Of a stretch of DNA of 64,000 bases, positions 1 through 15,276 are shown one piece after another. Under the pieces are notes generated by a model. That model saw only the letters and a list, made by a program, of their open reading frames with translations, ran no database searches and had not been told where the DNA came from. The translations under genes were made by a program, and so were the position numbers. Each line of letters starts with the position of its first letter. Position 1 is the first letter of the stretch. This DNA comes from a bacterium (GTDB lineage: Bacteria; Krumholzibacteriota; Krumholzibacteriia; G020349025): NCBI GenBank assembly GCA_031362565.1, contig JANLSU010000062.1, forward strand, positions 1 to 64,000, given 5' to 3'.

Positions 1-282
1 TCGTCGTGGCGCGAAAGCGGTTTGTCGTTGCGGGCGTTTGCGCAAGGTCAGGGTCTGAGTTTGTCGCGGCTGGCTCGTTGGAAGGCGCGCCTTCGCGCCG
101 GCGGGCAGCCGGTACAATTCCACCGCGTTGAGTTGGTGGAGCCAGCGGCGGCGCTGCAGACCATTGCCGGAAAACGTGTCGATGTCGTGCTGCGCGGTGG
201 TCGTCGGATCCGCGTTCGGCGTGGATTCGACGCTTCCTTGCTGGAAGCGGTCGCTCGCGCGGTGGAATCGTGGTCATGCTGA
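1..282 (+). CDS. tnpA: IS66 accessory protein TnpA (5'-partial)
   Basis: Frame open from base 1: WRESGLSLRAFAQGQGLSLSRLARW (HTH-like); overlaps tnpB. Confidence 0.85.
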   Translation, partial: SSWRESGLSLRAFAQGQGLSLSRLARWKARLRAGGQPVQFHRVELVEPAAALQTIAGKRVDVVLRGGRRIRVRRGFDASLLEAVARAVESWSC

Positions 283-656
283 CGCTGCCGTCCGCGGTAC
301 GGATCTACATGGCGTCCGAGCCGGTCGACTTGCGTCGCGGCTTCGACGGCTTGTCGGCCGCGACGCGTCACATCATTCGCGAGAATCCACTCTCGGGCCA
401 TTTGTTTGTCTTTGTGAATCGGCGCAGCAATCGGCTGAAGGTGCTCTTGTGGCAGCCGAGCGGCTTTCTGTTGCTGTACAAACGGCTCGAGCGCGGGACC
501 TTCAAGCGGCCTCGAGCGCCATCGCTGGGCGCGCGTCACATCGAAATGGACTCTGCCGAGCTCGCATTGATGATCGAAGGTATCGATCTCCGCGATGCGC
601 GGCGACGTACGCGATGGATTCCGCAGAATGCAGTTGCATCGGGTGTCGCGATGTGA
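276..656 (+). CDS. tnpB: IS66 accessory protein TnpB
   Basis: PVDLRRGFDGL, HLFVFVNRR, LLYKRLERGTF motifs. Confidence 0.95.
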   Translation: MLTLPSAVRIYMASEPVDLRRGFDGLSAATRHIIRENPLSGHLFVFVNRRSNRLKVLLWQPSGFLLLYKRLERGTFKRPRAPSLGARHIEMDSAELALMIEGIDLRDARRRTRWIPQNAVASGVAM

Positions 657-668
657 TTTAAGAGAGGT

Positions 669-2276
669 ATGCACACCGCAACACCAAAACCCGACGATCT
701 CGAAGCCGTCCGCGAAATGCTGAAGGCTCTCGTTGCCGAGAATCGTGGCGACGAGGCGGTCGAGGCCGCGGTCGCGATGCTCGGGAAACTGCGGTCGATC
801 AACACGGAGCTCATGCTCAAACTGGCCGCTCTGCGCCGCGAGCAGAGCGGCCGGCGGAGCGAGAAGATCGACCCGGCGCAGCTCTCGCTTCTGCTCCAGC
901 AGTGCAACGAGGCAATCGACGCGGAGCCGGAAGAAGAGGACGAGTCGACGCCGTCGGAGCATCCGGATGGCGAAGTGATCGACGAGGCGCCTCGGGAACG
1001 AAAGAAGAGACGCGGGAAGCGTATTGCGCCGACTATCCCGCGCGATGTCGTCCGTCATGAGTTGAATCCCGGAGAGCGTGCTTGTACCGGCTGCGGCGAG
1101 TCGATGCCACACATCGGCGACGACGTGAGCGAGATTTTGGAACTGGTGCCGGCACAATTTCGCGTGCAGGAGCATCACCGCGCCAAGTACGCATGCCCGA
1201 CGTGCAAGGAAACCGTCAAGACCGCTCCGGGCCCAGTGAAGCTGATCGAAAAAGGATTGCCGGGCCCGGGACTCTTGGCGCACGTCGTGCAGAGCAAGTA
1301 CGAGGATGCGTTGCCGCTCCAGCGGCTTCGGAAGATTTACCTGCGGGCCGGCGTCGATGTCTCGGTGTCGACGATGTGCGACTGGGTGGCGGCTGTCGCG
1401 GAGCAGCTGCGGCCGCTCGTCGACCGATTCTGGGATCTCACACTCGCGTCACACGTGCTGCAGATGGACGGCACGGGATTGAAGGTCCTGGACCGGGACG
1501 ACCCCGAGCACATTCGCAAAGGAACGATGTGGTGCCACGTGGGGGATCGCCGGTACGTCGTCTTCAAGTATTCGCCGACGGGCCGCGGTGACGATGGTCC
1601 GTGGACGAACCTCGCGGGGCGTGAGGGGTTAGTGCAGACGGACGCTGCGAATATCTTCGATCGGCTGCACAACGGCAAACGCGCCCATGCGATCGAGGTC
1701 GGATGTATGGCGCACGCACGACGGAAATTCTATCCGCTCCAGGATACCGATCCTCGAGTGGCCTATCCGCTCCAACTGATTGGCAAGCTCTACCAAGTCG
1801 AGCACGTTGCCGATCGACAGGGATTGTCGCCGGACCAGCGGGTCCAGATGCGACACCAGAAGTCGAAAACGATCCTCGAACGATTGCATCACTGGCTGGT
1901 CCGCACCGCGGCGAAGGAGCCACCGGAAGGCGTGCTCCACAAGGCTTGCGCGTATAGTGTGAATCATTGGGTGGCGCTGACACGCTTTCTCGAGGATGGC
2001 CGTCTCACACCCGACAACAACCTCTGCGAACTGCAGATTCGAAGTCTGGCGATTGGTCGCAAAAATTTCTTATTCGCCGGCTCCGATGCCGGCGCGGAGC
2101 ACGCGGCCATCCTCTACAGCTTCTTCCGCACCTGTGCGTTGCACGGCGTCGACGGCTACACGTACCTCATCGATGTCCTCGAGAAATTCGCGACTGGCTG
2201 GCCGGCGTCACGCATCGACGAACTCCTGCCCGACAACTGGCAGCAGGCTCGCGCTGAAGCCTCCACCACCAACTGA
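669..2276 (+). CDS. tnpC: IS66 transposase TnpC
   Basis: Leucine zipper + GRRSEK, zinc finger CTGC...CPTC, GCMAHARRKF, DNNLCE...GRKNFLF, terminal IDELLP. Confidence 0.96.
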   Translation: MHTATPKPDDLEAVREMLKALVAENRGDEAVEAAVAMLGKLRSINTELMLKLAALRREQSGRRSEKIDPAQLSLLLQQCNEAIDAEPEEEDESTPSEHPDGEVIDEAPRERKKRRGKRIAPTIPRDVVRHELNPGERACTGCGESMPHIGDDVSEILELVPAQFRVQEHHRAKYACPTCKETVKTAPGPVKLIEKGLPGPGLLAHVVQSKYEDALPLQRLRKIYLRAGVDVSVSTMCDWVAAVAEQLRPLVDRFWDLTLASHVLQMDGTGLKVLDRDDPEHIRKGTMWCHVGDRRYVVFKYSPTGRGDDGPWTNLAGREGLVQTDAANIFDRLHNGKRAHAIEVGCMAHARRKFYPLQDTDPRVAYPLQLIGKLYQVEHVADRQGLSPDQRVQMRHQKSKTILERLHHWLVRTAAKEPPEGVLHKACAYSVNHWVALTRFLEDGRLTPDNNLCELQIRSLAIGRKNFLFAGSDAGAEHAAILYSFFRTCALHGVDGYTYLIDVLEKFATGWPASRIDELLPDNWQQARAEASTTN

Positions 2277-2348
2277 CCCACCCGTTTGCACCCGGTCATA
2301 TTGCGCCGCGACCTCGACCACGCTACCCTGGGATTGTCGGACGGATAC

Positions 2349-2661
2349 GCATCAATCAGCCGTGGTCATCGCGATCCCCGCCTCGCTGCAGAACGCCATC
2401 TGGCTCTGACCGCTGACATCGAACCGTTCCAGAATCGTCCGCCACTCCGTCTCGCTCCGATGCGCGTACTTCTGGTCCTTCATCTTCGACTCCTACAGGG
2501 TGAAATAAAAAAACCGACTCACGTGCTCCTTCTTACACCGCACGATCGGGCCGTGGCTATGCCTCGCAAACTAGCCGCTTACGCCGCGAGCCCTCTACGG
2601 GCCGACGTCGACCGGAGCACGCTTCAAGCCGAGACGCTGACGGCGTAAAATAGCCGCTTAC
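2349..2661 (-). mobile_element. Remnant left end of a second IS66 element in opposite orientation
   Basis: The minus strand starts GTAAGCGGCTA at 2661 (IS66-type terminus) and contains a truncated tnpA. Confidence 0.7.
2352..2483 (-). pseudogene. tnpA: Truncated IS66 TnpA
   Basis: AGGAG RBS, then MKDQKYAHRSETEWRTILERFDVSGQSQMAFCSEAGIAMTTAD*, matching the TnpA N-terminal pattern W..I.E....SG.S..AFC...GI. Confidence 0.7.
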
Positions 2662-2780
2662 GTACGGAGAGCATCGACGACGTGCAGAAGAACTACGACA
2701 AGGTTGCCGCGGAGCTCTACTGAAGCACACCGGCCACGAGCGGTCAAGCGCGTCACTTATTTCGCCTGCGAGTGGAAGAA

Positions 2781-3347
2781 CTACCTATAAAGCTGTTTAA
2801 CGTGTCCCCACTCCACTGCTTGTGTAGATGACGCTTGGGTGATTCGCACACAAGCGAGGCTCACGCTCCGCGCTTCGATCGCGTGAGCGTGGGCCGGCGT
2901 TGCAAAGAACAAGGCCTGGACTCGGTATCCGCTTCCGACTGGCACCCCGTGCCTGACCAAGTCTAGCGGGCCTATCGTTTCCCAGATGCCTTCGCACTGT
3001 CTGGTGCCAAATCCAACGAGAACGGTCGATGTACCAACGGGTACGACAGATGAGCACGAGTCCGAAGAACCACTCGGAACCTGCACGATCGAGATATAGA
3101 CAGGGAACGGCTGAGACACGTCGCGCCGGTGAGTCAGAATTGAGACTGTTACTGGACCGTTGTTTTGTAGCAATGGGAAGGACACGCGTCCCACGTGCGA
3201 ATAGAACACTTGTCCACAGGACGAATCTACCCAAGCATCCGCGGATTCTACACAAACAGGCGTAGAACCCAGGCACATGTCTATTGACGAGAGTGCTTCC
3301 GCTCTCGCCCACGACAAAAGAACCACTATAGTTACAAGCCATCTCAT
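2781..3347 (-). CDS. Secreted Cys-rich hypothetical protein with C-terminal WGHVKQLYR tail
   Basis: Signal peptide MRWLVTIVVLLSWARAEA; ATGA overlap with the upstream gene; paralog of 3344..3994. Confidence 0.8.
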   Translation of the reverse strand: MRWLVTIVVLLSWARAEALSSIDMCLGSTPVCVESADAWVDSSCGQVFYSHVGRVSFPLLQNNGPVTVSILTHRRDVSQPFPVYISIVQVPSGSSDSCSSVVPVGTSTVLVGFGTRQCEGIWETIGPLDLVRHGVPVGSGYRVQALFFATPAHAHAIEARSVSLACVRITQASSTQAVEWGHVKQLYR

Positions 3348-3994
3348 CGAAAGAGCGCCTTCACCTGGCCCCAGCTGCTTGGCACAACAGCACTCACGGG
3401 GTGCGATACCACGCTTACACAACCAAGCCCTGGGCTGCCTTCTATTTCACCGGAAGTATCAAAGGCAGTGAGTTGCAATGCGTAATTGCTGCCCAGCGGC
3501 ACGAATTGTGTGATGTCAATGTCTATATATTCCCAGTAGTCGCAGTTCAAACTACCGCGCGCTACCATCACCACTTTGCCGGGATAGGCTGTGGGGCAGG
3601 CACCGCTCGGCCTACCGTCCATAGGTACGATCTCAACATACAGTGGGAAACGATCGCTGAAAGTTGCCAAGGCATTCACACCGACAGTAATCGGACCAAC
3701 ACAGCGAAGCGGATACCAGGCCATGCGACCCACAAAGAGCGTGTAACGTCTCGGACAGTCAAGATGAATGAGCCCACCTACAATTGCGTCGCGGCAGTAG
3801 GCGTCGCCGGGGCACGCCGCCAGATTCGCGGGCTGCCCAACCGCCGGTAGGGGCCACCACGCGACGAATCCAGCCAGACAAAGCACCCAACACACGCTGC
3901 TCGGTGCCGGGGTTCGTCGCGTGGTGTATCTCTCGGTATCAAGGGCCTGAAAAATTTCAGTCGCTACCTGTACCGAGTCTTGACTTGTCCCCAT
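3344..3994 (-). CDS. Secreted Cys-rich hypothetical protein with C-terminal WGQVKALFR tail (start uncertain)
   Basis: Hydrophobic signal-like segment; shares GP[IV]TV...FP[LV]Y[IV].IV with its neighbour. Confidence 0.75.
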   Translation of the reverse strand: MGTSQDSVQVATEIFQALDTERYTTRRTPAPSSVCWVLCLAGFVAWWPLPAVGQPANLAACPGDAYCRDAIVGGLIHLDCPRRYTLFVGRMAWYPLRCVGPITVGVNALATFSDRFPLYVEIVPMDGRPSGACPTAYPGKVVMVARGSLNCDYWEYIDIDITQFVPLGSNYALQLTAFDTSGEIEGSPGLGCVSVVSHPVSAVVPSSWGQVKALFR

Positions 3995-5187
3995 GTCACT
4001 CCACGGCTAGCATTGACTCGCGCCAGGTATCCAAAAGGGTCCGCGAGCCCTCGAGCACGCTGTGCAGCATCAACCAAGTCCCATTCTGGTATGAGTGTAC
4101 CTTGTGAATCGATCGGAACAAATCGTCCGGTACGCGCAAGACCAAACCATTGCAGTATGGCGTCAGCCTGATTTCGTTCTCCGGCCTTGCTTGCTTGGCA
4201 GTAGTCCCCGAGGTACCACGCCATCGTGCTCAGATCGTAAGAGTCGATCGTATTCAACGAAGTTCCGAATGGGTTGATATTGAATTTAAAGTTATGCCCG
4301 GATCCCAGAACGCCTGCATGCCCACTGAAACCCCAGTTCACCGGAGTAGAGGGACTCAAGAGAGGCACCAATGCGACGAGATCGGAAGTATCGACAAATC
4401 CTGGGCTTGCAGGCAGAAAGTCAGGGGTGGAGAAGTTTGTGATCAGCGTGGGCAAATTGCAGAAGGCCTCCGAGCCATTCGTCGCGACGAATCTTTGTTT
4501 CACATTGACTGTCTGACCGGGCGTATAGTTCCCGATAACGTCGGTCGTGGCCTCCTTATAGGTTCCCGGGTGATCCCAGCCGAACATGAGTATGAGGTGC
4601 CCCGCCGGTCCACCACTGTTGTTCATCCGCAACAACACCGTGGTTCCTTCCATGGCACCGCCGAAGATGTCTTTTACGTGGATATTGTTGTTACTGCTGA
4701 TCGGCCACGAGTTGTTTGTAGGCGCCTCAATCCGCGATCCGCAGTTGTAGTAAAGATTCGACGAATCATCTTCCTCGTCAATGGCTGGCGTTCCGGGGTC
4801 CAGATAGTAATCTAAAGCCCAAGTCCAGCCCGCGTATGGGCCCGGAGTTTCAAAGAGGGGCACAACCTCCTTGAGCAATTTGGGCGGGTTGAATGAGACC
4901 ATGCCGTCGTTTGGGCCGCCCTGGACTTCCGTTTTCCACGCAACATAGACTGGGAAGCTGCCGTCGAGCTGTTCCCACCAGTTAGCTGTATTGCCTTGGT
5001 AGGTAGGAGAGAGCTTTCCTTGAGCGGAAGGACCCGGGAAATCCACCCAACCCGGGGTCAACGTACATCCTAAGATGACGTACGTGTGCTGCGCAGAATC
5101 TAGAGGGAAGTCTAGATTGATGGACCCGCCGGCGTTGGCGGATGAGACAAAACACAGCAACATTAGTGTGGCGGTTAGGGTCCGCAT
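3964..5187 (-). CDS. Secreted hypothetical protein with dockerin/EF-hand-like repeats and C-terminal WGQVKTRYR tail
   Basis: Signal peptide MRTLTATLMLLCFVSSANA; repeats DFLPASPGFVDTSDL and NINPFGTSLNTIDSYDL. Confidence 0.8.
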   Translation of the reverse strand: MRTLTATLMLLCFVSSANAGGSINLDFPLDSAQHTYVILGCTLTPGWVDFPGPSAQGKLSPTYQGNTANWWEQLDGSFPVYVAWKTEVQGGPNDGMVSFNPPKLLKEVVPLFETPGPYAGWTWALDYYLDPGTPAIDEEDDSSNLYYNCGSRIEAPTNNSWPISSNNNIHVKDIFGGAMEGTTVLLRMNNSGGPAGHLILMFGWDHPGTYKEATTDVIGNYTPGQTVNVKQRFVATNGSEAFCNLPTLITNFSTPDFLPASPGFVDTSDLVALVPLLSPSTPVNWGFSGHAGVLGSGHNFKFNINPFGTSLNTIDSYDLSTMAWYLGDYCQASKAGERNQADAILQWFGLARTGRFVPIDSQGTLIPEWDLVDAAQRARGLADPFGYLARVNASRGVTWGQVKTRYR

Positions 5188-5401
5188 GGCGATACCTGCC
5201 ATTCGTCGAAAACTGTGACGATCGCCGCTCCGGACGGAACAACGCGTCAGCGCTTTGCCGGAGCCGCTCAAACCGTTTGTGCAGCATGACCCACATGAAC
5301 ACAAGTTTCAATCTCAGACCTCTGCTGGCCGTTCCACGACTTGGCGCTGGATCGACCCTGAAATCGTCCCGGAAGGCTTGTTGAGCAGCGTGCCCCTCTA
5401 T

Positions 5402-5435
5402 GACAGGCTCTTGGAAACGGGAGCTGTCTTTTTTT
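5402..5435 (+). terminator. Intrinsic terminator-like hairpin with T-tract
   Basis: GACAG(G)CTCT...GGAGCTGTC followed by 7 T. Confidence 0.6.
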
Positions 5436-5670
5436 GGCACACCCGCGAATTCCTTGCAGCTCGAAACGAACGCCGGCACCCAGTCGCCAAGGGGCGCGCC
5501 GTCATCACGCGAAAATAATCTCAGCCGCCGAGACTCCGCGTGACCGGCCACGCGAGCACGCAATCGAGGCCCCGGCCCCGCAACGTTTGCGCGGATCTGT
5601 TCAGTTCTGCAGGACCTGACACGCTAAAGGGTCTCGAAAGCGACACTTGGTGGCCCGGAACCAGGGCGAC

Positions 5671-5746
5671 TGAATAGTTAATTTATTAATAATCAGCTAA
5701 TTAGCTAGACTGGTGCCCCGTCGTTCCTCGTTGGTACGCGTGATGC
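5671..5746 (+). promoter_or_regulatory. sigma54-type promoter with upstream IHF-like site
   Basis: TGGTACGCGTGATGC (GG-N10-GC, 5732-5746); AATCAGCTAATTA (5691-5703, fits WATCARNNNNTTR) inside an AT-rich tract. Confidence 0.7.
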
Positions 5747-5812
5747 CTTACCACTCCCTCAGATTGCCGAGCGGGTCTAAACCAGATCCCCGGCGCAAAA
5801 GGAGGTGCCGAC

Positions 5813-6004
5813 ATGCAAGCAACAGTCATCGCAAACCAAGTGCAGGCCCAAGTGGCCGTCGACGAGTACCTGGGATTCAGCATCCAACAGAACAGCGGCT
5901 CCTACATCGCGAGCCCCACGGGATGGCAGGGAGAAGTCCTCCTCGCCGAGAGCATGCCGGTCCTGCGCCGCAAGATCTGGCGTTGGTGGCATCAGGTCCA
6001 GTGA
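5813..6004 (+). CDS. 63-aa small protein, paralog 1 (LRRxIxRWW family)
   Basis: AGGAGG RBS; clear similarity to 6388..6579. Confidence 0.85.
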   Translation: MQATVIANQVQAQVAVDEYLGFSIQQNSGSYIASPTGWQGEVLLAESMPVLRRKIWRWWHQVQ

Positions 6005-6300
6005 CTCTGATCCTCGGGCGTGTGGGACTCCCAGCGGGGAACCTCGCCAGTCCCAGCGCCCGGGGCCGTTCGCAGACCGAGTTTGGTTCGTCCCATCAAA
6101 AATCTGCCCGTTGCCGCACCCGGCCCGGTCAGCGCCACGACTTGGACAAGTTGTCGCGCCGACCGGGCCCCGCCTCTTTCGGGGCCGAATCGGACCGGCG
6201 CCGGACGTGGTGGAACTGTCGGACGCGCCGGCAGCACGCCCAAACGCGCTCTCACGGCCGCGCCGCGCGTGTCGCCGGCGCATTCGCGCTCTACCGGCGC

Positions 6301-6316
6301 GGGCATGCATCGTGCG
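6301..6316 (+). promoter_or_regulatory. sigma54-type promoter
   Basis: GGGCATGCATCGTGCG (GG-N10-GC) about 70 nt upstream of paralog 2. Confidence 0.5.
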
Positions 6317-6387
6317 AGTGCAACGAGTGATTCGGGTTGTCCTAATTGCCCCGGACAGCGAATCGCCCACGCGCGAGGGGGACCGCC

Positions 6388-6579
6388 GTGGCATCGAAAC
6401 GTCTACCGCAAGCTGCGACCGAGGACCTGTTTCTCGGTTACCGCATTCGCAAGCTCGGCGATGTGTATGTCGCAACGCCGCAGGAATGGGCGCAGGGGCG
6501 CGCGCAACTGCTTGCCGCCGCCAATCTGCCGGAACTGCGGCGCGAGATCGAACGCTGGTGGTACGAAGTCGGCGCCTGA
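6388..6579 (+). CDS. 63-aa small protein, paralog 2 (LRRxIxRWW family)
   Basis: GAGGGGG RBS, GTG start; DLFLGYRI...YVATPQEW...LPELRREIERWW aligns with paralog 1. Confidence 0.85.
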   Translation: MASKRLPQAATEDLFLGYRIRKLGDVYVATPQEWAQGRAQLLAAANLPELRREIERWWYEVGA

Positions 6580-6643
6580 TGCAGCGCCGATTCGGTTGGC
6601 ACTCGTGGCGGCGATCGCGCCGCGCACCAACGGCGCTTCGTAA

Positions 6644-6697
6644 TGACAAGTTGTCGCGGCGGGCCCGCGACGCCGCACCGGACGCGACAAGTTGACA
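6644..6697. promoter_or_regulatory. Paired palindromic GACAAGTTG(T/A)C motifs (candidate enhancer sites)
   Basis: TGACAAGTTGTCGCG (6644-6658) and CGCGACAAGTTGACA (6683-6697); the same GACAAGTTGTCGCG occurs at 6145-6158. Confidence 0.55.
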
Positions 6698-6797
6698 GGC
6701 CGCAAACCCGCCCCCAGAGCCATCGACAGACCGCGGCCGCGGTTCCAACACCGCCGCAGAACGCGACTTCCGAGATCCGAGTCACTGGGCAACAGGT

Positions 6798-6813
6798 TTG
6801 GTACGCGATGTGC
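6798..6813 (+). promoter_or_regulatory. sigma54-type promoter
   Basis: TTGGTACGCGATGTGC; the first 10 nt are identical to the promoter at 5731. Confidence 0.65.
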
Positions 6814-6824
6814 GGAGAGAGATG

Positions 6825-6917
6825 AATCTGCATGGACGACGGTGGTGGGGGTTCGCAGTGGTGAAACTGGTTGTGTGGGGGCGCACGCTAGTTTCGCGAC
6901 CCCCCCACCGCGTTCTT
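6825..6917 (+). ncRNA. Candidate sigma54-dependent small RNA (long imperfect hairpin)
   Basis: Starts about 12 nt after the -12 element; arms 6844-6856/6896-6909 and 6863-6870/6888-6895 pair; no convincing protein ORF. Confidence 0.4.
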
Positions 6918-6967
6918 GCAGGAACAGATCGAGCCGCGCGCCGAGATCCCCGCCACAAGCAGCGTTC

Positions 6968-7540
6968 TCACCGATCGAAAAGATCCGCGTGATAGAACGG
7001 CGCCAACGCCGCGACAACCGCCATCTCGAATGCCGTCGCCCGTGACAAGAGGCCGCGCGTCACATGCCCCCAGGTGCCGCCTTGGCTGCGGACGTCGGTC
7101 GCCTTCGCGACTCGATCAATCACTTCCCCCAAATCTTCGCCGGCACGCACCGGAACCGCGATGCAAGCCGGCAGCGCGACGCTCGGACCACACCCGAACG
7201 CACCGCGCCGGCCATCCCAGGCATAGCACCAACTTCGTAGCCACGCCGTGTCCGTGCCCTGGGGAGCATGCACGCCACCCTCGAGTCCGAGATACAAAGC
7301 CGCGTCCTGTCCTTCGGCTTCGAGCTCGGACTGCAGGGTCAGGGCGCGTTGCTCGGCACCGCGTTGCAACTCGTCGTCCGAAAGGGGCGTCGCGGCAACC
7401 CCGGAAAGAGTCGCCCGGAGTACGAGTTCGACGCCCGACCAGCGGGCCGGATCGAGCTCCGCCAAACGCTCGAGTACGGCACGCACCGCTTGGACCTTCG
7501 GCTCGCGCCGGGACGCGAGTGCGACACGTGGCGGTTGCAA
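6968..7540 (-). CDS. yjjX: Inosine/xanthosine triphosphatase (DUF84/NTPase_I-T family)
   Basis: VALAS...PKVQAV, GAEQRA, GLEGG, GEDLG, G..G..TRGLLSR motifs. Confidence 0.85.
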   Translation of the reverse strand: MQPPRVALASRREPKVQAVRAVLERLAELDPARWSGVELVLRATLSGVAATPLSDDELQRGAEQRALTLQSELEAEGQDAALYLGLEGGVHAPQGTDTAWLRSWCYAWDGRRGAFGCGPSVALPACIAVPVRAGEDLGEVIDRVAKATDVRSQGGTWGHVTRGLLSRATAFEMAVVAALAPFYHADLFDR

Positions 7541-7547
7541 CCGCGCC

Positions 7548-9320
7548 TCACTCCCCGGTGTAGATCAGCGTCGCTGCCGTGTAATCCTCGAGTAACTGGG
7601 GCAGGAAATCGTGCCGGAGCCGGAAGCAAATCCGTCCGGCCGCTTCGTCGTAGAACTTTGGACCGCCGGCCGGCGTAAAGCCCGTCGCATGGCAGGCCAA
7701 CAGCACATCGCGCCGGTAGTCCCAAAGCCGCACCTCGTCGGGTGTGATGAACAGCCCGAAGAGATCCCCGGCATAGCGATGCTTGGTGAATTGCTTCAGG
7801 AAGAGCGGACTCTCGTACGCCTCGGGTTCGCTATAGACGCGTTCGCGAATGAGGATGGCAAGTTGTGGCGGGTCGCCCGCCGGGCGTGGGCGCGCGACCC
7901 GCGGTGCGACGGTTTCGCCCCGCGCCCGGGCCAATGAATCGACGAGCGCCTGGGTCCACACCGGCATCGGTCCCTGGTACGGGCCGACGGAAACGACATA
8001 CTCGTCGCCCTCGTCATACATCTCGAAGGTCCATTTTTCCTGCGCATCGCGCCAACGCATCACCGGCTGATGGCCACGCGTTTCGGCGGGGACCACCTTG
8101 CATCCTGGGTTCATGGGCGCCGGTACGGCAGCGGCGCGGACGCGGACCCATTCCGTCAGCGCCGGGCCACTTTTCCCGGTCGCAACTTCGACGGCTTGGC
8201 GCATCGCTGCCGCATCGAATGCGGCGGCGCGCGCCGCTGAAGCGGAGAACTTGGCGTAGAAAGCCGGGAATTTTTCGCCCGTCATCTGGTCGAGCACCGC
8301 GCCGGCCCACGCCGCTGCGAGCGGTACAGCATTTTCAGGTTTCATGGCCGCAAAGGCTCGGGCATCGAGTACCGCGTCCAAATCGCCGGCCTTGGCGCCG
8401 AGCGCCGCGCCGCGCTGCAGAACGACGGTCTCTGCCCAATCGCCCCAGCCGCCCAGAACCGCGGCAGTGCCCTCCTCGAGCCAGGGCGCGGCATTCGGTC
8501 CGACGTTCCGCAGCGAAGCATGCAAGACCGCGCGCGCCACGCCGTTCAGATCCGCGTTGGCGAGTGACACGACGCGTTCACCGGCGAGCTGGTAGCCGGC
8601 CGGCCGCGAGCCCACCAGGGCGTGGACGTCTCCCGGCGTGTGACACAAGTAGTATTCGATCTTCAAGCGCTCGAGCCTGAGGCGGACGAGATCCGGCGTC
8701 GCGAGCCGCTTGAACATCTGCTCGACGCCCGCATCCAGCGACTCCACCGCATTCCGATTCACGTCGCGCAAGCGCATCGCATGCACGCGCACATAGCGGC
8801 CTTCCCGCAACGACCAATTGGCGGCGACTTTTTCGTACGGCGACGATACGCGCCAGCCATCGGGGGTTTTCGCTACGACGTAGGCCAGGCTGTCGGTCCG
8901 GGTGGTCTTGGCATTCGGCAGAAGCACCGTGTAATGCGCCCACGTCGCGTCGATGCTGCTATCGGCCACGGCAGGCGCCGTCTTGGGCGCGGCCGCGCGG
9001 TCTTCGGCGCTCCAGAGCAAGTTGTCGTCGAAACGCGCTTCGATGCCTTCGTACGTCGTGCCGAGCGCCGTACTGCGCCGCAGGTCGCCGGCATCCCAAA
9101 GCGCCTCGGCCGCGGTCACATCGCCGCGCCAGCGCGCTTCGAGGTAACGCCGCAGGACGTCGCGGGGCGCATCGGCGGCGGCCGCCGGGGAAACGAACTG
9201 CGTTCCCAGCGCCAAGCCCAAACCGCAACACCACAACGCGGCCGACGCAGTGAGCTTGCTATACTTCGCGCGCCGCACCGCGGCGGCCTGACCGGAATCA
9301 ATGCGACTCGACAAAACCAT
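7548..9320 (-). CDS. Secreted hypothetical protein with degenerate peptidase-MA-like region (start uncertain, 9314-9356)
   Basis: Signal peptide ...LALGTQFVSPAAAA; PWLEEGTA motif but no HExxH. Confidence 0.7.
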   Translation of the reverse strand: MVLSSRIDSGQAAAVRRAKYSKLTASAALWCCGLGLALGTQFVSPAAAADAPRDVLRRYLEARWRGDVTAAEALWDAGDLRRSTALGTTYEGIEARFDDNLLWSAEDRAAAPKTAPAVADSSIDATWAHYTVLLPNAKTTRTDSLAYVVAKTPDGWRVSSPYEKVAANWSLREGRYVRVHAMRLRDVNRNAVESLDAGVEQMFKRLATPDLVRLRLERLKIEYYLCHTPGDVHALVGSRPAGYQLAGERVVSLANADLNGVARAVLHASLRNVGPNAAPWLEEGTAAVLGGWGDWAETVVLQRGAALGAKAGDLDAVLDARAFAAMKPENAVPLAAAWAGAVLDQMTGEKFPAFYAKFSASAARAAAFDAAAMRQAVEVATGKSGPALTEWVRVRAAAVPAPMNPGCKVVPAETRGHQPVMRWRDAQEKWTFEMYDEGDEYVVSVGPYQGPMPVWTQALVDSLARARGETVAPRVARPRPAGDPPQLAILIRERVYSEPEAYESPLFLKQFTKHRYAGDLFGLFITPDEVRLWDYRRDVLLACHATGFTPAGGPKFYDEAAGRICFRLRHDFLPQLLEDYTAATLIYTGE

Positions 9321-9412
9321 CCTCCGGGAAACAGTGACCGGGCGACACGTTAACATGCCTTCTTGGTTCGTGACCACGCACCGGACGCGAACCAACGGTT
9401 GGAGCCACGGCG

Positions 9413-10400: not shown

Positions 10401-11273
10401 ATGATGAATCCCGTCCTCGAGCGCTTGCAGCGCTACGCGCTGCGGCCTCGCAAGGAACTCGGGCAGCATTTCCTCGTCGAGCCGCATACGCTCGAGCGGC
10501 TGGCGGATGCCATTGGCGCCGGTGCGGGCGACACGGTGCTGGAATTCGGTGCCGGGGTGGGGGTCCTGACCGAACTGTTGCTCATGCGCGGCGCGCGTGT
10601 CGTGGCCGTCGAGCTCGACGATGCGCTGGCGGACCTCTTGCAGCAGGAACTCGGCGGGTACGCCGGATTCCGGCTCATCCGCGGCGACCTGACGCAGGTT
10701 TCGGCACCGGCGCTGTGTGCGGAACTCGGCATCTCACGGTTGAAGCTCGCCGGCAATTTGCCGTACCAGCTCACCAGCCACGTCCTTTTTTCGGTGCTCG
10801 ATTTGGAAGAGGGGCTTGCCGATGCGACATTCATGGTGCAGCGCGAGGTTGCCGAGCGCATCGTGTCGCCGCCGGGATCGCGCGACTACGGCATCTTGAG
10901 CGTGTTGTTGCACGCCTACCACGATGTCGAACTGGTGCTGCGAGTGAAGGCCGGTGCCTTCGTGCCACCGCCGCGCGTCGAATCGGCGGTGCTGCACATC
11001 GTGCCGCGGCGGCAAGGCCCGGCGCTCGGCTGGAGTGAACGCCCGGCGCTGGTGCGCTTGGTGAAGAGCACGTTCAACGAACGGCGCAAGGTGTTGCGGA
11101 ATACGCTCAAGAAATTCTATGGGCTCGATGCGGCGGCGGTGACGGCGCTCGAAAGTGCCAGCCGTCTCGATCTCGGGCGGCGGCCCGAAACACTCTCGGT
11201 CGACGAATTCGTCCGGTTGCTGCACGCGATGCCCCCGGTCGCGTTGCAGCCGAACCGCGAGGTCGGGCAATGA
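10401..11273 (+). CDS. rsmA: 16S rRNA (A1518/A1519) dimethyltransferase
   Basis: LGQHFL, LEFGAGVGVLT, GNLPY, MVQREVAERI, F.PPPRVESAV. Confidence 0.95.
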   Translation: MMNPVLERLQRYALRPRKELGQHFLVEPHTLERLADAIGAGAGDTVLEFGAGVGVLTELLLMRGARVVAVELDDALADLLQQELGGYAGFRLIRGDLTQVSAPALCAELGISRLKLAGNLPYQLTSHVLFSVLDLEEGLADATFMVQREVAERIVSPPGSRDYGILSVLLHAYHDVELVLRVKAGAFVPPPRVESAVLHIVPRRQGPALGWSERPALVRLVKSTFNERRKVLRNTLKKFYGLDAAAVTALESASRLDLGRRPETLSVDEFVRLLHAMPPVALQPNREVGQ

Positions 11274-13705
11274 GGGCACGCAGTGCAGCCCGTGGTGTGA
11301 TGTGGGCGCTCGTGCTTTGCGTGACCGCGAAGCCGGCAGCGGGTTTCTGGCCGCTGACGAGCGAGTTCGTGCCGGCAACACGCGATACGGCTGCCGACAC
11401 GCGGCTCGACAAGCGATTCCATTTGTTCGAGGCCGGCAAGCCCGAGCAACAGTTCGTGCCATTCGCGGCGCCCACCGCTCCAATGCGCTCGTCAGCGGGC
11501 GTCGGAGCCCCAGCGAGTGCGGACAGCACGACACGCGCTGCAAATTCCGACAGCACGCGGCTGGCGGCACCCACTGATAGCACTGCGGTGGCTGCAAGCG
11601 TGGACAGCGTCACACAGGCCGCCAGAGACAGCTTGGCGAACGCCAGCACGACGCCGGGCTCGAATGGCACGGGTGGAACTGTCGGCACGGGTACGGGCAC
11701 TGGCGCTGGCACCCCGGGCGCCGGCGTGGCCGCGAGCGCCGCGGCTGCTGCTGCCGCTCAGATGATGGCCCAGCGTGGTTATGCGCCGGATTTTACTTCC
11801 AGCATCACGATGTCGAACGACCGTCAGACGCTCAATTCCAACCTCACGTCGGGTTTCACCGACGCGTCGGGGGTCGTGCTCAGTAACAGTCTCGGCTACG
11901 ACGACGACGTCACGCGCACGCAAAAGATCGAAACCCAGACCTATCGCATGACCAACAATCTGTCGGTGCCGCTCAAAAGGCGTGGCTTGAGTGCGAATGC
12001 CTCGACGATGAACCTCCGGTCGAATACCACCGGCCAGAAGGCGATCAACGGCAACCCGTTGTCGGTTCATGGAGAGATCAAGAGCGCCGTCGCGGGGCTC
12101 GTGTTGTCGCGCCGTCTCACGACTCTGCCCGGTGGGCGGGCGCTACGGCCGCTTTTCCTGGGGTGGTCGGCCAACACCGGCTACAACCGCTCCGCGGATG
12201 TGAATGCCACGAATCGCACCACGACGAATGTCGCCGGTTCGAGCCGGACGAAACACCGCGGCCAAAGCGACAACTGGGGCGTCGGCGTGTCGTTCGACCG
12301 CTGGAACTGGATGACCGCCTCGAGCCGCTATGGCAACCTGCGCCGCGCCAACAAGGACCAAATCGTCAACTTCGTGCGCGCCGACAGCGCCGACGTACTC
12401 GACCAAAACTCGACGTCCAAGGGCGACACCGCGACCGTCGACGTGTCGATGACGAAGCTGGGTGGCTGGGCGCAGTCGGTGACCTTGAACTTCCGCAGCG
12501 CCAACGGCAGCGACACGCATCCGGATCAAGCCCGGACGTCGTCGGGGGCGCAAACGGGTGCACTCTACACTTTTGAAACCGTGACCACTTTCAGCCAGTC
12601 GTTCAACGCCAAGGCGCAACTCACGCCCTGGACCCGCTATAGCGCGACCGTGACGGTGAACGCTTCGCGCGATTCGACGACCTACGCGACGCGCTCGCTA
12701 GGCTTCAACGACACGAAACGCGCCGGCTGGAAGCTCGAATCGAAGCTCCTGCTTTGGAAAGACACGTCGCTGAGCATGAACTACGAGTCGAACGCGACGG
12801 ACGCGAACCTGGACGGTATCGAACGCACCGGCCCCGACACCGGCCGGCGGAAGATCAACACGACAACCCGCGGCGAGGAGGGCCGCAAGCTCTATACCGA
12901 GTTCAATACCATCTTCACGCCGACCATGCGCATCCGCGCCTTCGCGGAGATTCAGCTCGACCAGTCGTTCTACAAACACCCGGTGGTCGGCCAGGGGCTC
13001 GGCGATGCCGATCTATTCCGCACCCGCGCCGGGATCGATTTAACCGGTAACATGTCGAAGACGGTCATGGCACAGGTTACCGCCTATGTCCGCACGTACG
13101 ACCAGGCGTTCATCGACCCGTTGCGCTCGGCGAGCACCACCAACGAGATCGAGTACGTCGTCTGGCCGGGCTACACCTGGCAGTTGGATCCCCGGGTCGG
13201 AATCGAGCAACGGTTTGGGCTGTCTTCGAAGGTCCTGGACAACGTTTTCGACCCGTCGCGCAGCACCTTGAACCGCAATCATTTCATGAAGACGTACATG
13301 CGGACCCAAATGACCAAACGCTTGCATCTCGACTTGAGCTACGAATACGGCCTGCAAGACAACGGCTCGTACACGAGCCTCGACGGGGTGGGGCCGCGGT
13401 TGTTCGGTGCCCAGGCGCGCACGAAGACCGACCAGATCGGGGTCGCCATGCGCTACGATCTCATCAGCGGCGACAAGCTGTCGTTCGTCTCGGACCAGTA
13501 TTCGCGCCGCACCTACCGTTTTGGGTTCAACGGCCGGCCACCGGAGATCACCGAGGCGGGCAATCTCGCGCTCGGCGTGCGGTCGAAGTTGCAGATCGGC
13601 GGCTTGTCACTGGACAGCAGCATCAAGCGCAACCAGAACAAAGGGTTCGCGGGGAACGACAAGGTGTTTTACAATGCCGACACCAAACTTTCGTATACGT
13701 TCTGA
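11270..13705 (+). CDS. Large outer-membrane beta-barrel-like protein
   Basis: Signal peptide, low-complexity Ala/Thr/Gly linker, alternating beta-strand pattern, C-terminal KLSYTF; ATGA overlap with rsmA. Confidence 0.75.
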   Translation: MRARSAARGVMWALVLCVTAKPAAGFWPLTSEFVPATRDTAADTRLDKRFHLFEAGKPEQQFVPFAAPTAPMRSSAGVGAPASADSTTRAANSDSTRLAAPTDSTAVAASVDSVTQAARDSLANASTTPGSNGTGGTVGTGTGTGAGTPGAGVAASAAAAAAAQMMAQRGYAPDFTSSITMSNDRQTLNSNLTSGFTDASGVVLSNSLGYDDDVTRTQKIETQTYRMTNNLSVPLKRRGLSANASTMNLRSNTTGQKAINGNPLSVHGEIKSAVAGLVLSRRLTTLPGGRALRPLFLGWSANTGYNRSADVNATNRTTTNVAGSSRTKHRGQSDNWGVGVSFDRWNWMTASSRYGNLRRANKDQIVNFVRADSADVLDQNSTSKGDTATVDVSMTKLGGWAQSVTLNFRSANGSDTHPDQARTSSGAQTGALYTFETVTTFSQSFNAKAQLTPWTRYSATVTVNASRDSTTYATRSLGFNDTKRAGWKLESKLLLWKDTSLSMNYESNATDANLDGIERTGPDTGRRKINTTTRGEEGRKLYTEFNTIFTPTMRIRAFAEIQLDQSFYKHPVVGQGLGDADLFRTRAGIDLTGNMSKTVMAQVTAYVRTYDQAFIDPLRSASTTNEIEYVVWPGYTWQLDPRVGIEQRFGLSSKVLDNVFDPSRSTLNRNHFMKTYMRTQMTKRLHLDLSYEYGLQDNGSYTSLDGVGPRLFGAQARTKTDQIGVAMRYDLISGDKLSFVSDQYSRRTYRFGFNGRPPEITEAGNLALGVRSKLQIGGLSLDSSIKRNQNKGFAGNDKVFYNADTKLSYTF

Positions 13706-14526: not shown

Positions 14527-15183
14527 ATGTCCCGCTTGCGGAGTTCACTCACCCCCGTGATTCTTACAGTTGCCGTGCTCGGCACCGCACTCTCCGGGTG
14601 TATTTTCAGTCCGGACCCGAAGACTACGCCACAGGACCCCGGTTACACGCCGGCGAAGAGTGAGGCCGAACTGATCGGCCAGCTGAAGACCGCGTACCAG
14701 AAACGCGACTTCGACACCTTCACGAAACTCTTCCACCCAGACTATCAATTCTTCCTGAACGTCGCCCAGCCAGACGGCACCACGAGTTGGGGTTTGACGG
14801 AAGAGCTGCGCATTCACCGCCGCATGTTCCGTCCGGAAGACGTACAGCCGGGGGAGACTCCGGTGACGCAGGACCTGTACCTCGTGAGCGTCGACATCAC
14901 GCTTACGGCGCGCGACGCGTTCCAGGATGCCGGGGTGTACTACTTGAACCCCTCGAATCCGACGGGCTTCCCGCGCGAGAACTTCACCGTGACGCAGACC
15001 GACTACGCTGCGTCGGTGTTCTTCCAGACCCAAGGTGAAACGCAGTACCGCGTCGACGGTGCAGCCAATTTCGTGGTCGTGAACGACCTCTCGAAGACGG
15101 TCGGCCAAGACGGCAAGTTCCTCATCTATCGCTGGGAAGACCTGGGCGGTCCAACCGCGAAGCCGAGCGTTCCGGCGCTCTGA
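14527..15183 (+). CDS. Putative lipoprotein (NTF2-like)
   Basis: GGAGG RBS; lipobox LSGC; YQKRDFDTFTKLFHPDYQF...WGLTEE...YRWED. Confidence 0.8.
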   Translation: MSRLRSSLTPVILTVAVLGTALSGCIFSPDPKTTPQDPGYTPAKSEAELIGQLKTAYQKRDFDTFTKLFHPDYQFFLNVAQPDGTTSWGLTEELRIHRRMFRPEDVQPGETPVTQDLYLVSVDITLTARDAFQDAGVYYLNPSNPTGFPRENFTVTQTDYAASVFFQTQGETQYRVDGAANFVVVNDLSKTVGQDGKFLIYRWEDLGGPTAKPSVPAL

Positions 15184-15276
15184 CCCGCATCGAGCGTTGA
15201 CAAGCCTCCTCCGCGGAGCGAATCTCCGCGCACCGGCCACGCCACGAGCGTGGCCGGTCGCGTCTAGGAGGGTCGG

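Follow-up and report, generated by a model that had tools for sequence, protein, structure and literature searches.

Two neighbouring open reading frames (ORFs), here called A (5813..6004, plus strand) and B (6388..6579, plus strand), encode members of a new family of small proteins that no known sequence family covers in the libraries searched. They lie in a 64,000-nt stretch of DNA from a bacterium of the class Krumholzibacteriia (GenBank assembly GCA_031362565.1, contig JANLSU010000062.1, positions 1 to 64,000), which is referred to below as the window. A and B are real genes under purifying selection, and the family to which they belong is restricted to one taxonomic family of Krumholzibacteriia, in which it is vertically inherited as four paralogous types (A-D). 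Its members are predicted to be cytoplasmic proteins of about 62 residues that fold as a four-stranded antiparallel sheet packed on one long C-terminal helix. As their most likely role, I tentatively propose that they are small docking or modulator proteins that might bind a partner through the Arg/Trp/His face of this helix.

Evidence for a genuine protein family

Both ORFs are 192 nt long and encode 63 residues. ORF A begins with ATG, 5 nt beyond a Shine-Dalgarno site at 5799..5807 (plus strand, AAGGAGGTG), and its product ends in LRRKIWRWWHQVQ; ORF B begins with GTG at 6388, 5-6 nt beyond a Shine-Dalgarno-like site at 6375..6382 (plus strand, GAGGGGGA), and its product ends in LRREIERWWYEVGA. 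The ORF listing also holds a longer form of ORF B with a TTG start (6346..6579, 77 residues); the 192-nt GTG form is the likely one, because relatives of type B open with M-A-[ST]-[KR] where ORF B has its GTG. The Shine-Dalgarno site of type A is kept in metagenome contigs, where it can be read in frame as K-E-V-P-x-M. The two products are identical at 19 of 49 aligned residues (BLASTP, E 5e-13) and both close with P-x-L-R-R-x-I-x-R-W-W. A preliminary description, made from the letters of the window alone, had noticed the paired 192-nt ORFs, their good ribosome-binding sites, their alignment and their common ending, all of which are upheld here.

Searches of large protein collections place A and B among many relatives. 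A word-index search of 5.8 billion proteins returned 13 candidates, all of which match at E <= 7e-16 and are 62-106 residues long (one is the window's own protein), and an exhaustive profile search of 1.84 billion representative proteins returned 72 clusters at E <= 1e-3, 41 of them at E <= 1e-10. Counted among the 72, and then dropped, is P0017, a junk tandem-repeat ORF of 756 residues; the other clusters span just 44-137 residues with no fused form seen, so the family domain stands alone. The alignment used below (A2) holds 74 members, namely four from the window's genome, five from the word-index search and 65 of the 72 profile-search clusters (P0017, P0019, P0072, P0076, P0077, P0083 and P0085 were left out). 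At least 90% of members keep L20, G21, A33, R52, I55, W58 and W59, and the family signature reads Y-L-G-[FY]-x-I ... A-x-P-x-G-W ... P-x-L-R-[KR]-[KR]-I-W-R-W-W.

The preliminary description had also argued for purifying selection. Ratios of nonsynonymous to synonymous substitution (dN/dS; Nei-Gojobori, folded core) are 0.06-0.41 for 15 pairs of A orthologs and 0-0.32 for 15 pairs of B orthologs, figures that are rough because synonymous sites are near saturation, and all 30 pairs computed fall below 1; together with the 72 clusters, this supports the argument. That A and B are instead chance ORFs in GC-rich DNA, with a non-coding feature as the object of conservation, is hardly credible. The region is indeed crowded with spurious overlapping ORFs and the flanks of both genes are strongly structured, but the protein is conserved though synonymous sites are near-saturated, dN/dS is at most 0.41 in 30 of 30 pairs, and starts, stops and Shine-Dalgarno sites are conserved. 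Furthermore, the same residue pattern is kept by four diverged paralogs per genome and the AlphaFold models are confident. The sole RNA-library run with part of the window holds a 238-nt metatranscriptome contig that spans 5871-6108 and differs from ORF A at three positions, all of them third codon positions; contigs cannot demonstrate transcription, and this one is a weak hint that ORF A is expressed, while positions that lack cover say nothing either way.

No annotated family claims these proteins. A and B have no Pfam match at E <= 10, and the 74 members gave scattered single-member chance matches to Pfam, NCBIfam, PHROGs and PADLOC (best E 0.0048, 0.036, 0.0062 and 0.046, respectively). 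The family profile matched none of the PDB chain sequences at E <= 10, and the best score in the ESM Atlas (0.87) led to unnamed clusters. A search of Rfam with 5200-7100 gave nothing real; one rpfG match reached 19.7 bits, well below its gathering score (75.9). In full-text literature, where the family motif cannot be queried as text, the papers listed were general ones on small proteins, and none of those listed names Krumholzibacteria. The statement in the preliminary description that no family was recognised is thus borne out.

Predicted fold and surface

AlphaFold2, supplied with the family alignment, modelled ORF A with a predicted local distance difference test score (pLDDT) of 79.1 and a predicted template modelling score (pTM) of 0.56. 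The model has strands at residues 15-19, 22-27, 30-35 and 43-45 and a helix at 48-62; that of ORF B (pLDDT 77.4, pTM 0.58) has the same beta-beta-beta-beta-alpha topology. A beta-beta-beta-alpha mini-domain had been suggested at the outset, and its sheet followed by one C-terminal helix is retained in the models, whereas its three strands have become four. A predicted complex of A with B scored 0.01 and 0.01 (ipSAE), with the fold of the partner uncertain in at least one run, and counts neither for nor against binding. The structurally closest protein to the A and B models is MmoD (orfY; PDB 6D7K chain H), an inhibitory or auxiliary subunit of soluble methane monooxygenase. The match recurs for both paralogs and spans nearly the whole domain; because models that lack any true match often reach best scores of 7-8, I read it as shared topology and not as shown homology.

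For the folded core, the medians over the 74 members are 0 for net charge and 6.8 for isoelectric point (pI). Sheet positions 17, 18, 23, 26, 28, 41, 44 and 46 are mostly acidic, basic residues occupy helix positions 52-54 and 57, and 57 of the 74 members have Trp at position 56. Helical periodicity turns L51, I55, W58, W59 and V62 toward the sheet and R53, W56, R57 and H60 toward solvent. The basic and aromatic character that had been taken as compatible with nucleic-acid or protein binding is therefore found in the helix but does not extend to the neutral core or the acidic sheet, and a simple nucleic-acid-binding reading is weakened, because basic character is limited to the helix. An acidic sheet, a neutral core and an Arg/Trp/His helix face would, as judged from these residue patterns, fit protein docking better than a DNA-reading sheet.

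Distribution, paralog types and genomic setting

The family was found in seven of the 201 genomes sampled from the phylum, that is, the window's genome and all six others of its taxonomic family, and in none of the 194 genomes from the phylum's other eight families, a distribution with which a smaller genome sample agrees. Each of the seven carries three or four copies. The window's genome has four, which are A and B plus one each on contigs C97 and C34. Four orthogroups, types A-D, were resolved across the seven genomes and are told apart by their C-termini, which read ...WWHQVQ or similar in type A, ...RRWW[YF]QVG in type B and ...WW[HF]..L.D in type C, and are variable in type D.

Pfam annotation of 130 ORFs around copies in four relatives gives the gene order FtsEX, peptidase M23, HolB, methionyl-tRNA synthetase (MetRS, metG), A, B, a convergent gene and, further on, TatD and KsgA. 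The order MetRS, A, B was seen in genomes G001, G003, G005 and G006, and of 22 metagenome loci, 16 have MetRS upstream of A and six have little or no upstream flank. The convergent gene past B encodes either an NTPase_I-T or an NHL-repeat protein in the relatives. In the window it is an NTPase_I-T (PF01931, YjjX-like; 6968..7540, minus strand, Pfam E 3e-31). Such a gene also follows B in G003 and in metagenome locus L080, as seen by tblastn with the protein from G003.

Type C is divergent from a tRNA-Met(CAT) gene in all five C loci examined and lies near enolase in G000, G001 and G003. In locus L032 the type-C gene occupies about 6338-6541 (minus strand), roughly 250 nt from the tRNA-Met gene (G000:C97:58788-58864; L032:6789-6865). 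The window's genome encodes 53 tRNAs, three of which have a CAT anticodon, and only the one beside type C combines an unpaired 1:72 position with three G-C pairs in the anticodon stem (GGG/CCC), features that I take to mark it as initiator-like. The context of type D is not conserved. In the window's genome as in its relatives, A, B and C are syntenic with housekeeping genes, and the sole mobile element near the copies is an IS66 insertion upstream of A.

This insertion is a segment of about 6 kb (1..5720) that separates metG from ORF A in the window's genome. It is recognised from its IS66 domains, from contig overlap and from similarity to relatives: contig C113 (end region 14908-15264) stops 356 nt past the MetRS gene and ends in 92 nt that are identical to positions 1-92 of the window, similarity to relatives picks up again near 5722, and contigs from related strains part from the window upstream of 5724-5732. 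The segment holds an IS66-family transposase (669-2276) with an IS66 accessory-like ORF upstream, and three minus-strand ORFs in 2781-5304 that have no Pfam matches, one of which starts like a signal peptide. An AT-rich patch at 5670-5715, within DNA of 65% GC, holds a perfect 12-nt palindrome, AGCTAATTAGCT, at 5695-5706, on the inner edge of the inserted segment and about 100 nt upstream of ORF A; the patch may be an element end or a promoter/operator. A scan of 5300-7000 gave no sigma-70-like promoter sites and two terminator-like sites, both upstream at 5406-5490 and no more than shuffles yield.

Farther along the window, ORFs at 7548-9395 (minus strand, 615 residues) and 11270-13705 (plus strand, 811 residues) flank TatD and KsgA and have no Pfam match at E <= 1e-3. 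Both may be conserved lineage-specific proteins, because G003 has an ORF of similar size (613 residues) at the matching place, likewise without a Pfam match.

RNA hairpins and a palindromic motif beside A and B

Right after the stop codon of A, the minimum-free-energy fold of the spacer 6005-6387 forms a 54-nt hairpin (6012..6065, plus strand) that is presumably a terminator. The fold of this spacer has a z score of -2.93, and one of 100 shuffles was equally stable. Downstream of B, the fold of 6580-6967 (z -2.40 against shuffles) contains a long imperfect hairpin at 6833..6920 (plus strand, inverted repeat I7). Metagenome loci also have long hairpins of this kind after A or B, which match model R1 weakly, at 17-27 bits; such weak matches are just long hairpins in general, since true matches score equally on their reverse strand.

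All six other genomes of the family have, at the A-B locus, a hairpin of roughly 100 nt that is followed by a T-rich run. Five have it between A and B; in G002 it is just upstream of the B-type copy, where the contig begins inside the spacer. The copies are at L036:7522-7632 (plus strand), L034:6761-6871 (minus), L039:6401-6511 (minus), L041:7231-7346 (minus), L005:871-983 (minus) and G002:C168:360-470, and between genera they are 90-99% identical against 70-85% for the flanking genes. A covariance model found one such hairpin in each of these six genomes and none in the 34 genomes of other families that were searched, so the hairpin matches the proteins in distribution. The model found none in the window's genome (best match in the window 9.6 bits, E 0.72), and 5 of the 22 metagenome loci gave strong matches. 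Rfam had no match for the hairpin region of the relatives. The hairpin may be a small RNA or an unusually conserved terminator; tRNA and signal recognition particle (SRP) RNA were considered and rejected, with ARAGORN and Rfam negative and the window's genome without the hairpin RNA.

A second recurrent element in the spacers is a short near-palindromic motif, GCGACAACTTGTC, which in the lineage of the window reads as its reverse complement, GACAAGTTGTCGC. One copy (GACAAGTTGTCGCG, 6145-6158) lies in a hairpin with 23-bp arms at 6122..6169 (plus strand, inverted repeat I1, 87% complementary). Past ORF B, a hairpin at 6644..6697 (plus strand, repeat family D1, inverted repeat I3) holds another full copy at 6645-6658 and a partial third at 6686-6694. 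The exact 14-mer GACAAGTTGTCGCG has two copies in the 5.4-Mb genome, both beside A and B; its 11-mer core has six genome-wide in both orientations, against about 0.5 expected per strand; and the 9-mer core ACAA[CG]TTGT has 11 copies in 85.5 kb of A-B loci, compared with 27 in the entire 5.4-Mb genome. The 9-mer is borne by G000 (twice), G003, G002, L068, L071, L073 and L080 (twice), with weaker forms in L061 and L062, and its orientation is inverted in the G000/L080 lineage. Such a motif is a candidate operator for a dimeric DNA-binding protein.

Proposed role and rival explanations

In the docking proposal, L51, I55, W58/W59 and V62 would pack the helix against the sheet, and the face formed by R52/R53/K54, W56, R57 and H60, together with the edge of strand 4, would be the surface that grips a larger cellular partner. 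Such docking would be akin to that of MmoD, which uses strand 4, a loop and its long helix to engage the hydroxylase, and types A-D might each suit different partners or conditions. By analogy with MmoD and from the surface described above, I regard this as a reasonable possibility, though one that falls short of probable. The positions beside metG and the initiator-like tRNA gene point weakly to the translation machinery as a candidate partner. It is a striking coincidence that A stands next to metG and C next to an initiator-like tRNA-Met, both of them related to methionine; since synteny within one bacterial family is inherited, this adjacency is weak evidence for function. Several points speak against the docking proposal. 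The genes have no conserved operon partner, and the buried and exposed faces of the helix were assigned from periodicity and not from measured coordinates. The likeness to MmoD comes with 6-9% identity in the structural alignments and with no match of the family profile to PDB sequences, 6D7K included, at E <= 10; Foldseek searches returned nothing at E <= 1e-3 from either PDB or the viral models of BFVD, the best BFVD match being an uncharacterised phage protein at E 0.016. Finally, the palindrome and RNA hairpins beside the genes could equally indicate nucleic-acid binding.

The last point underlies two live alternatives. A and B might be sequence-specific DNA-binding autoregulators of the AP2/GCC-box or integrase-arm kind, a dimer of which would read GCGACAACTTGTC and control A/B transcription. 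The 9-mer core is enriched at the A-B loci of several genera, the 14-mer is found only twice genome-wide, both times here, and an orientation that varies by lineage would suit a site acting at the level of DNA. I nonetheless consider this somewhat unlikely: the motif is missing at the A-B loci of genus g2 (G001, G005 and G006), which keeps both genes, and none turned up in the sequence retrieved around paralogs C and D. AP2-type domains touch DNA through basic sheet residues, whereas the sheet here is acidic and the core neutral, and the Pfam AP2 model (PF00847) matches no member and none of 151 genomes, those with the family among them, the control genomes being likewise silent. MmoD, the closest structure, showed no DNA binding in the gel shifts reported for it (PMC6774732). 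A helix-mediated contact with nucleic acid is possible for A-D all the same. Alternatively, A-D could be RNA-binding proteins that act on their own hairpin-rich untranslated regions or on the 100-nt RNA of the relatives, using their beta-beta-beta-alpha part in the way of a double-stranded-RNA-binding domain. Here the hairpin is more conserved than the genes around it and the spacers in the window are more stable than shuffles (z -2.9 and -2.4), but the window's genome has all four proteins yet no 100-nt RNA, the core is not basic, and a hairpin with a U-run is possibly just the terminator of gene A, all of which makes RNA binding unlikely.

Two further readings have a slimmer chance still. 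One, for which I see little probability, joins the four paralogs, the palindrome and, in most relatives, the 100-nt RNA into a lineage-specific regulatory module at the metG and initiator-tRNA loci, in which the proteins would tune methionyl-tRNA supply or translation initiation by docking on MetRS, initiation factors or the RNA; if true, they would form a new class of small-protein regulators linked to translation. The other, slightly less probable again, holds that A-D are orphan HicB-like (UPF0150-type) antitoxin N-domains that counter HicA-type toxins encoded elsewhere. In its favour, the hhalign alignment with the HicB-like protein of the window's genome keeps a common strand-strand-helix register, and that genome has three HicA-like matches. 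However, the alignment is not significant (E 0.71 with a single sequence and E 0.49 profile to profile, against a PF15919 alignment of 13 sequences from the window's genome, its relatives and database matches), and none of the 74 members matches PF15919 or any HicB model at E <= 1. The HicA matches (PF07927) fall only on contigs C77, C63 and C108, whereas the four paralogs are on C89, C97 and C34, at fixed housekeeping sites unlike those of mobile toxin-antitoxin pairs. Within the class, HicB-like genes occur sporadically, in 4 of 61 genomes, whereas the family is in seven of seven genomes of its lineage. A precursor or leader of a ribosomally synthesised and post-translationally modified peptide was also considered and rejected, given the confident fold, the lack of nearby modifying enzymes and the conservation of the C-terminal two thirds.

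Whatever their role, A-D are a candidate for the definition of a new small-protein family, with 72 representative clusters, four orthologous subtypes and a clear signature, in a phylum that is uncultured, lives in sediment and soil and has an almost unknown biology. The fixed sites by metG and by the single initiator-like tRNA gene, along with the RNA hairpin and the palindrome, provide concrete, testable hypotheses. Should the protein be merely structural, it would be one more lineage-specific orphan family, useful for annotation and unsurprising.

Comparison with known systems

Besides MmoD, the fold classes named for the A and B models are HicB/UPF0150, YegP-like, double-stranded-RNA-binding, AP2 and integrase arm-binding, and release-factor domains. 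AP2/GCC-box and integrase arm-type domains consist of a three-stranded sheet and a helix; the sheet of A-D is acidic where theirs is basic, and A-D stand alone, unattached to an integrase or nuclease.

A further comparison is with HicB-like proteins (UPF0150, PF15919; for example TTHA1013, 1WV8). Their beta-beta-beta-alpha core superposes with a root-mean-square deviation of 1.5-2.2 over 43-46 residues, both groups include small stand-alone proteins of similar length, and a G-x-aromatic-x-A-x-P strand pattern is similar in the hhalign register. HicB has a strand following the helix; A-D lack this strand and have an extra one at the N-terminus. The canonical HicB-like protein of the window's genome has 87 residues, matches PF15919 and has more than 1400 close metagenome relatives, and HicB-like and HicA-like genes share contig C77 (760-1023, minus strand, and 4183-4341, plus strand), about 3 kb apart and not adjacent.

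The likeness to MmoD lies in the order of secondary structure. In PMC6774732, the MmoD core (residues 8-71) is described as four antiparallel strands with one long helix at the C-terminus, the same four strands and helix as were found in the A and B models; MmoD is said there to use strand 4, a loop and the helix in docking on the hydroxylase, and to bind a protein, with gel-shift assays negative for DNA. MmoD and the 74 members have no NCBIfam or Pfam match in common. The settings differ as well: MmoD is encoded in the mmoXYBZDC operon, whereas A-D occur as four paralogs per genome in a metG/yjjX and tRNA-Met context, and the neighbours in the window are the IS66 insertion, metG, the NTPase_I-T gene, tatD and ksgA and not a diiron monooxygenase operon. 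The diiron hydroxylase model PF02332 had no match in the window's genome, though the search controls were silent too. Peculiar to the family of A-D is the Trp-rich helix motif R-[KR]-x-I-W-R-W-W. The family definition is new and the fold class already known, and if the likeness is true, A-D would be the first indication of the four-strand-plus-helix fold of MmoD outside methane and hydrocarbon monooxygenase operons.

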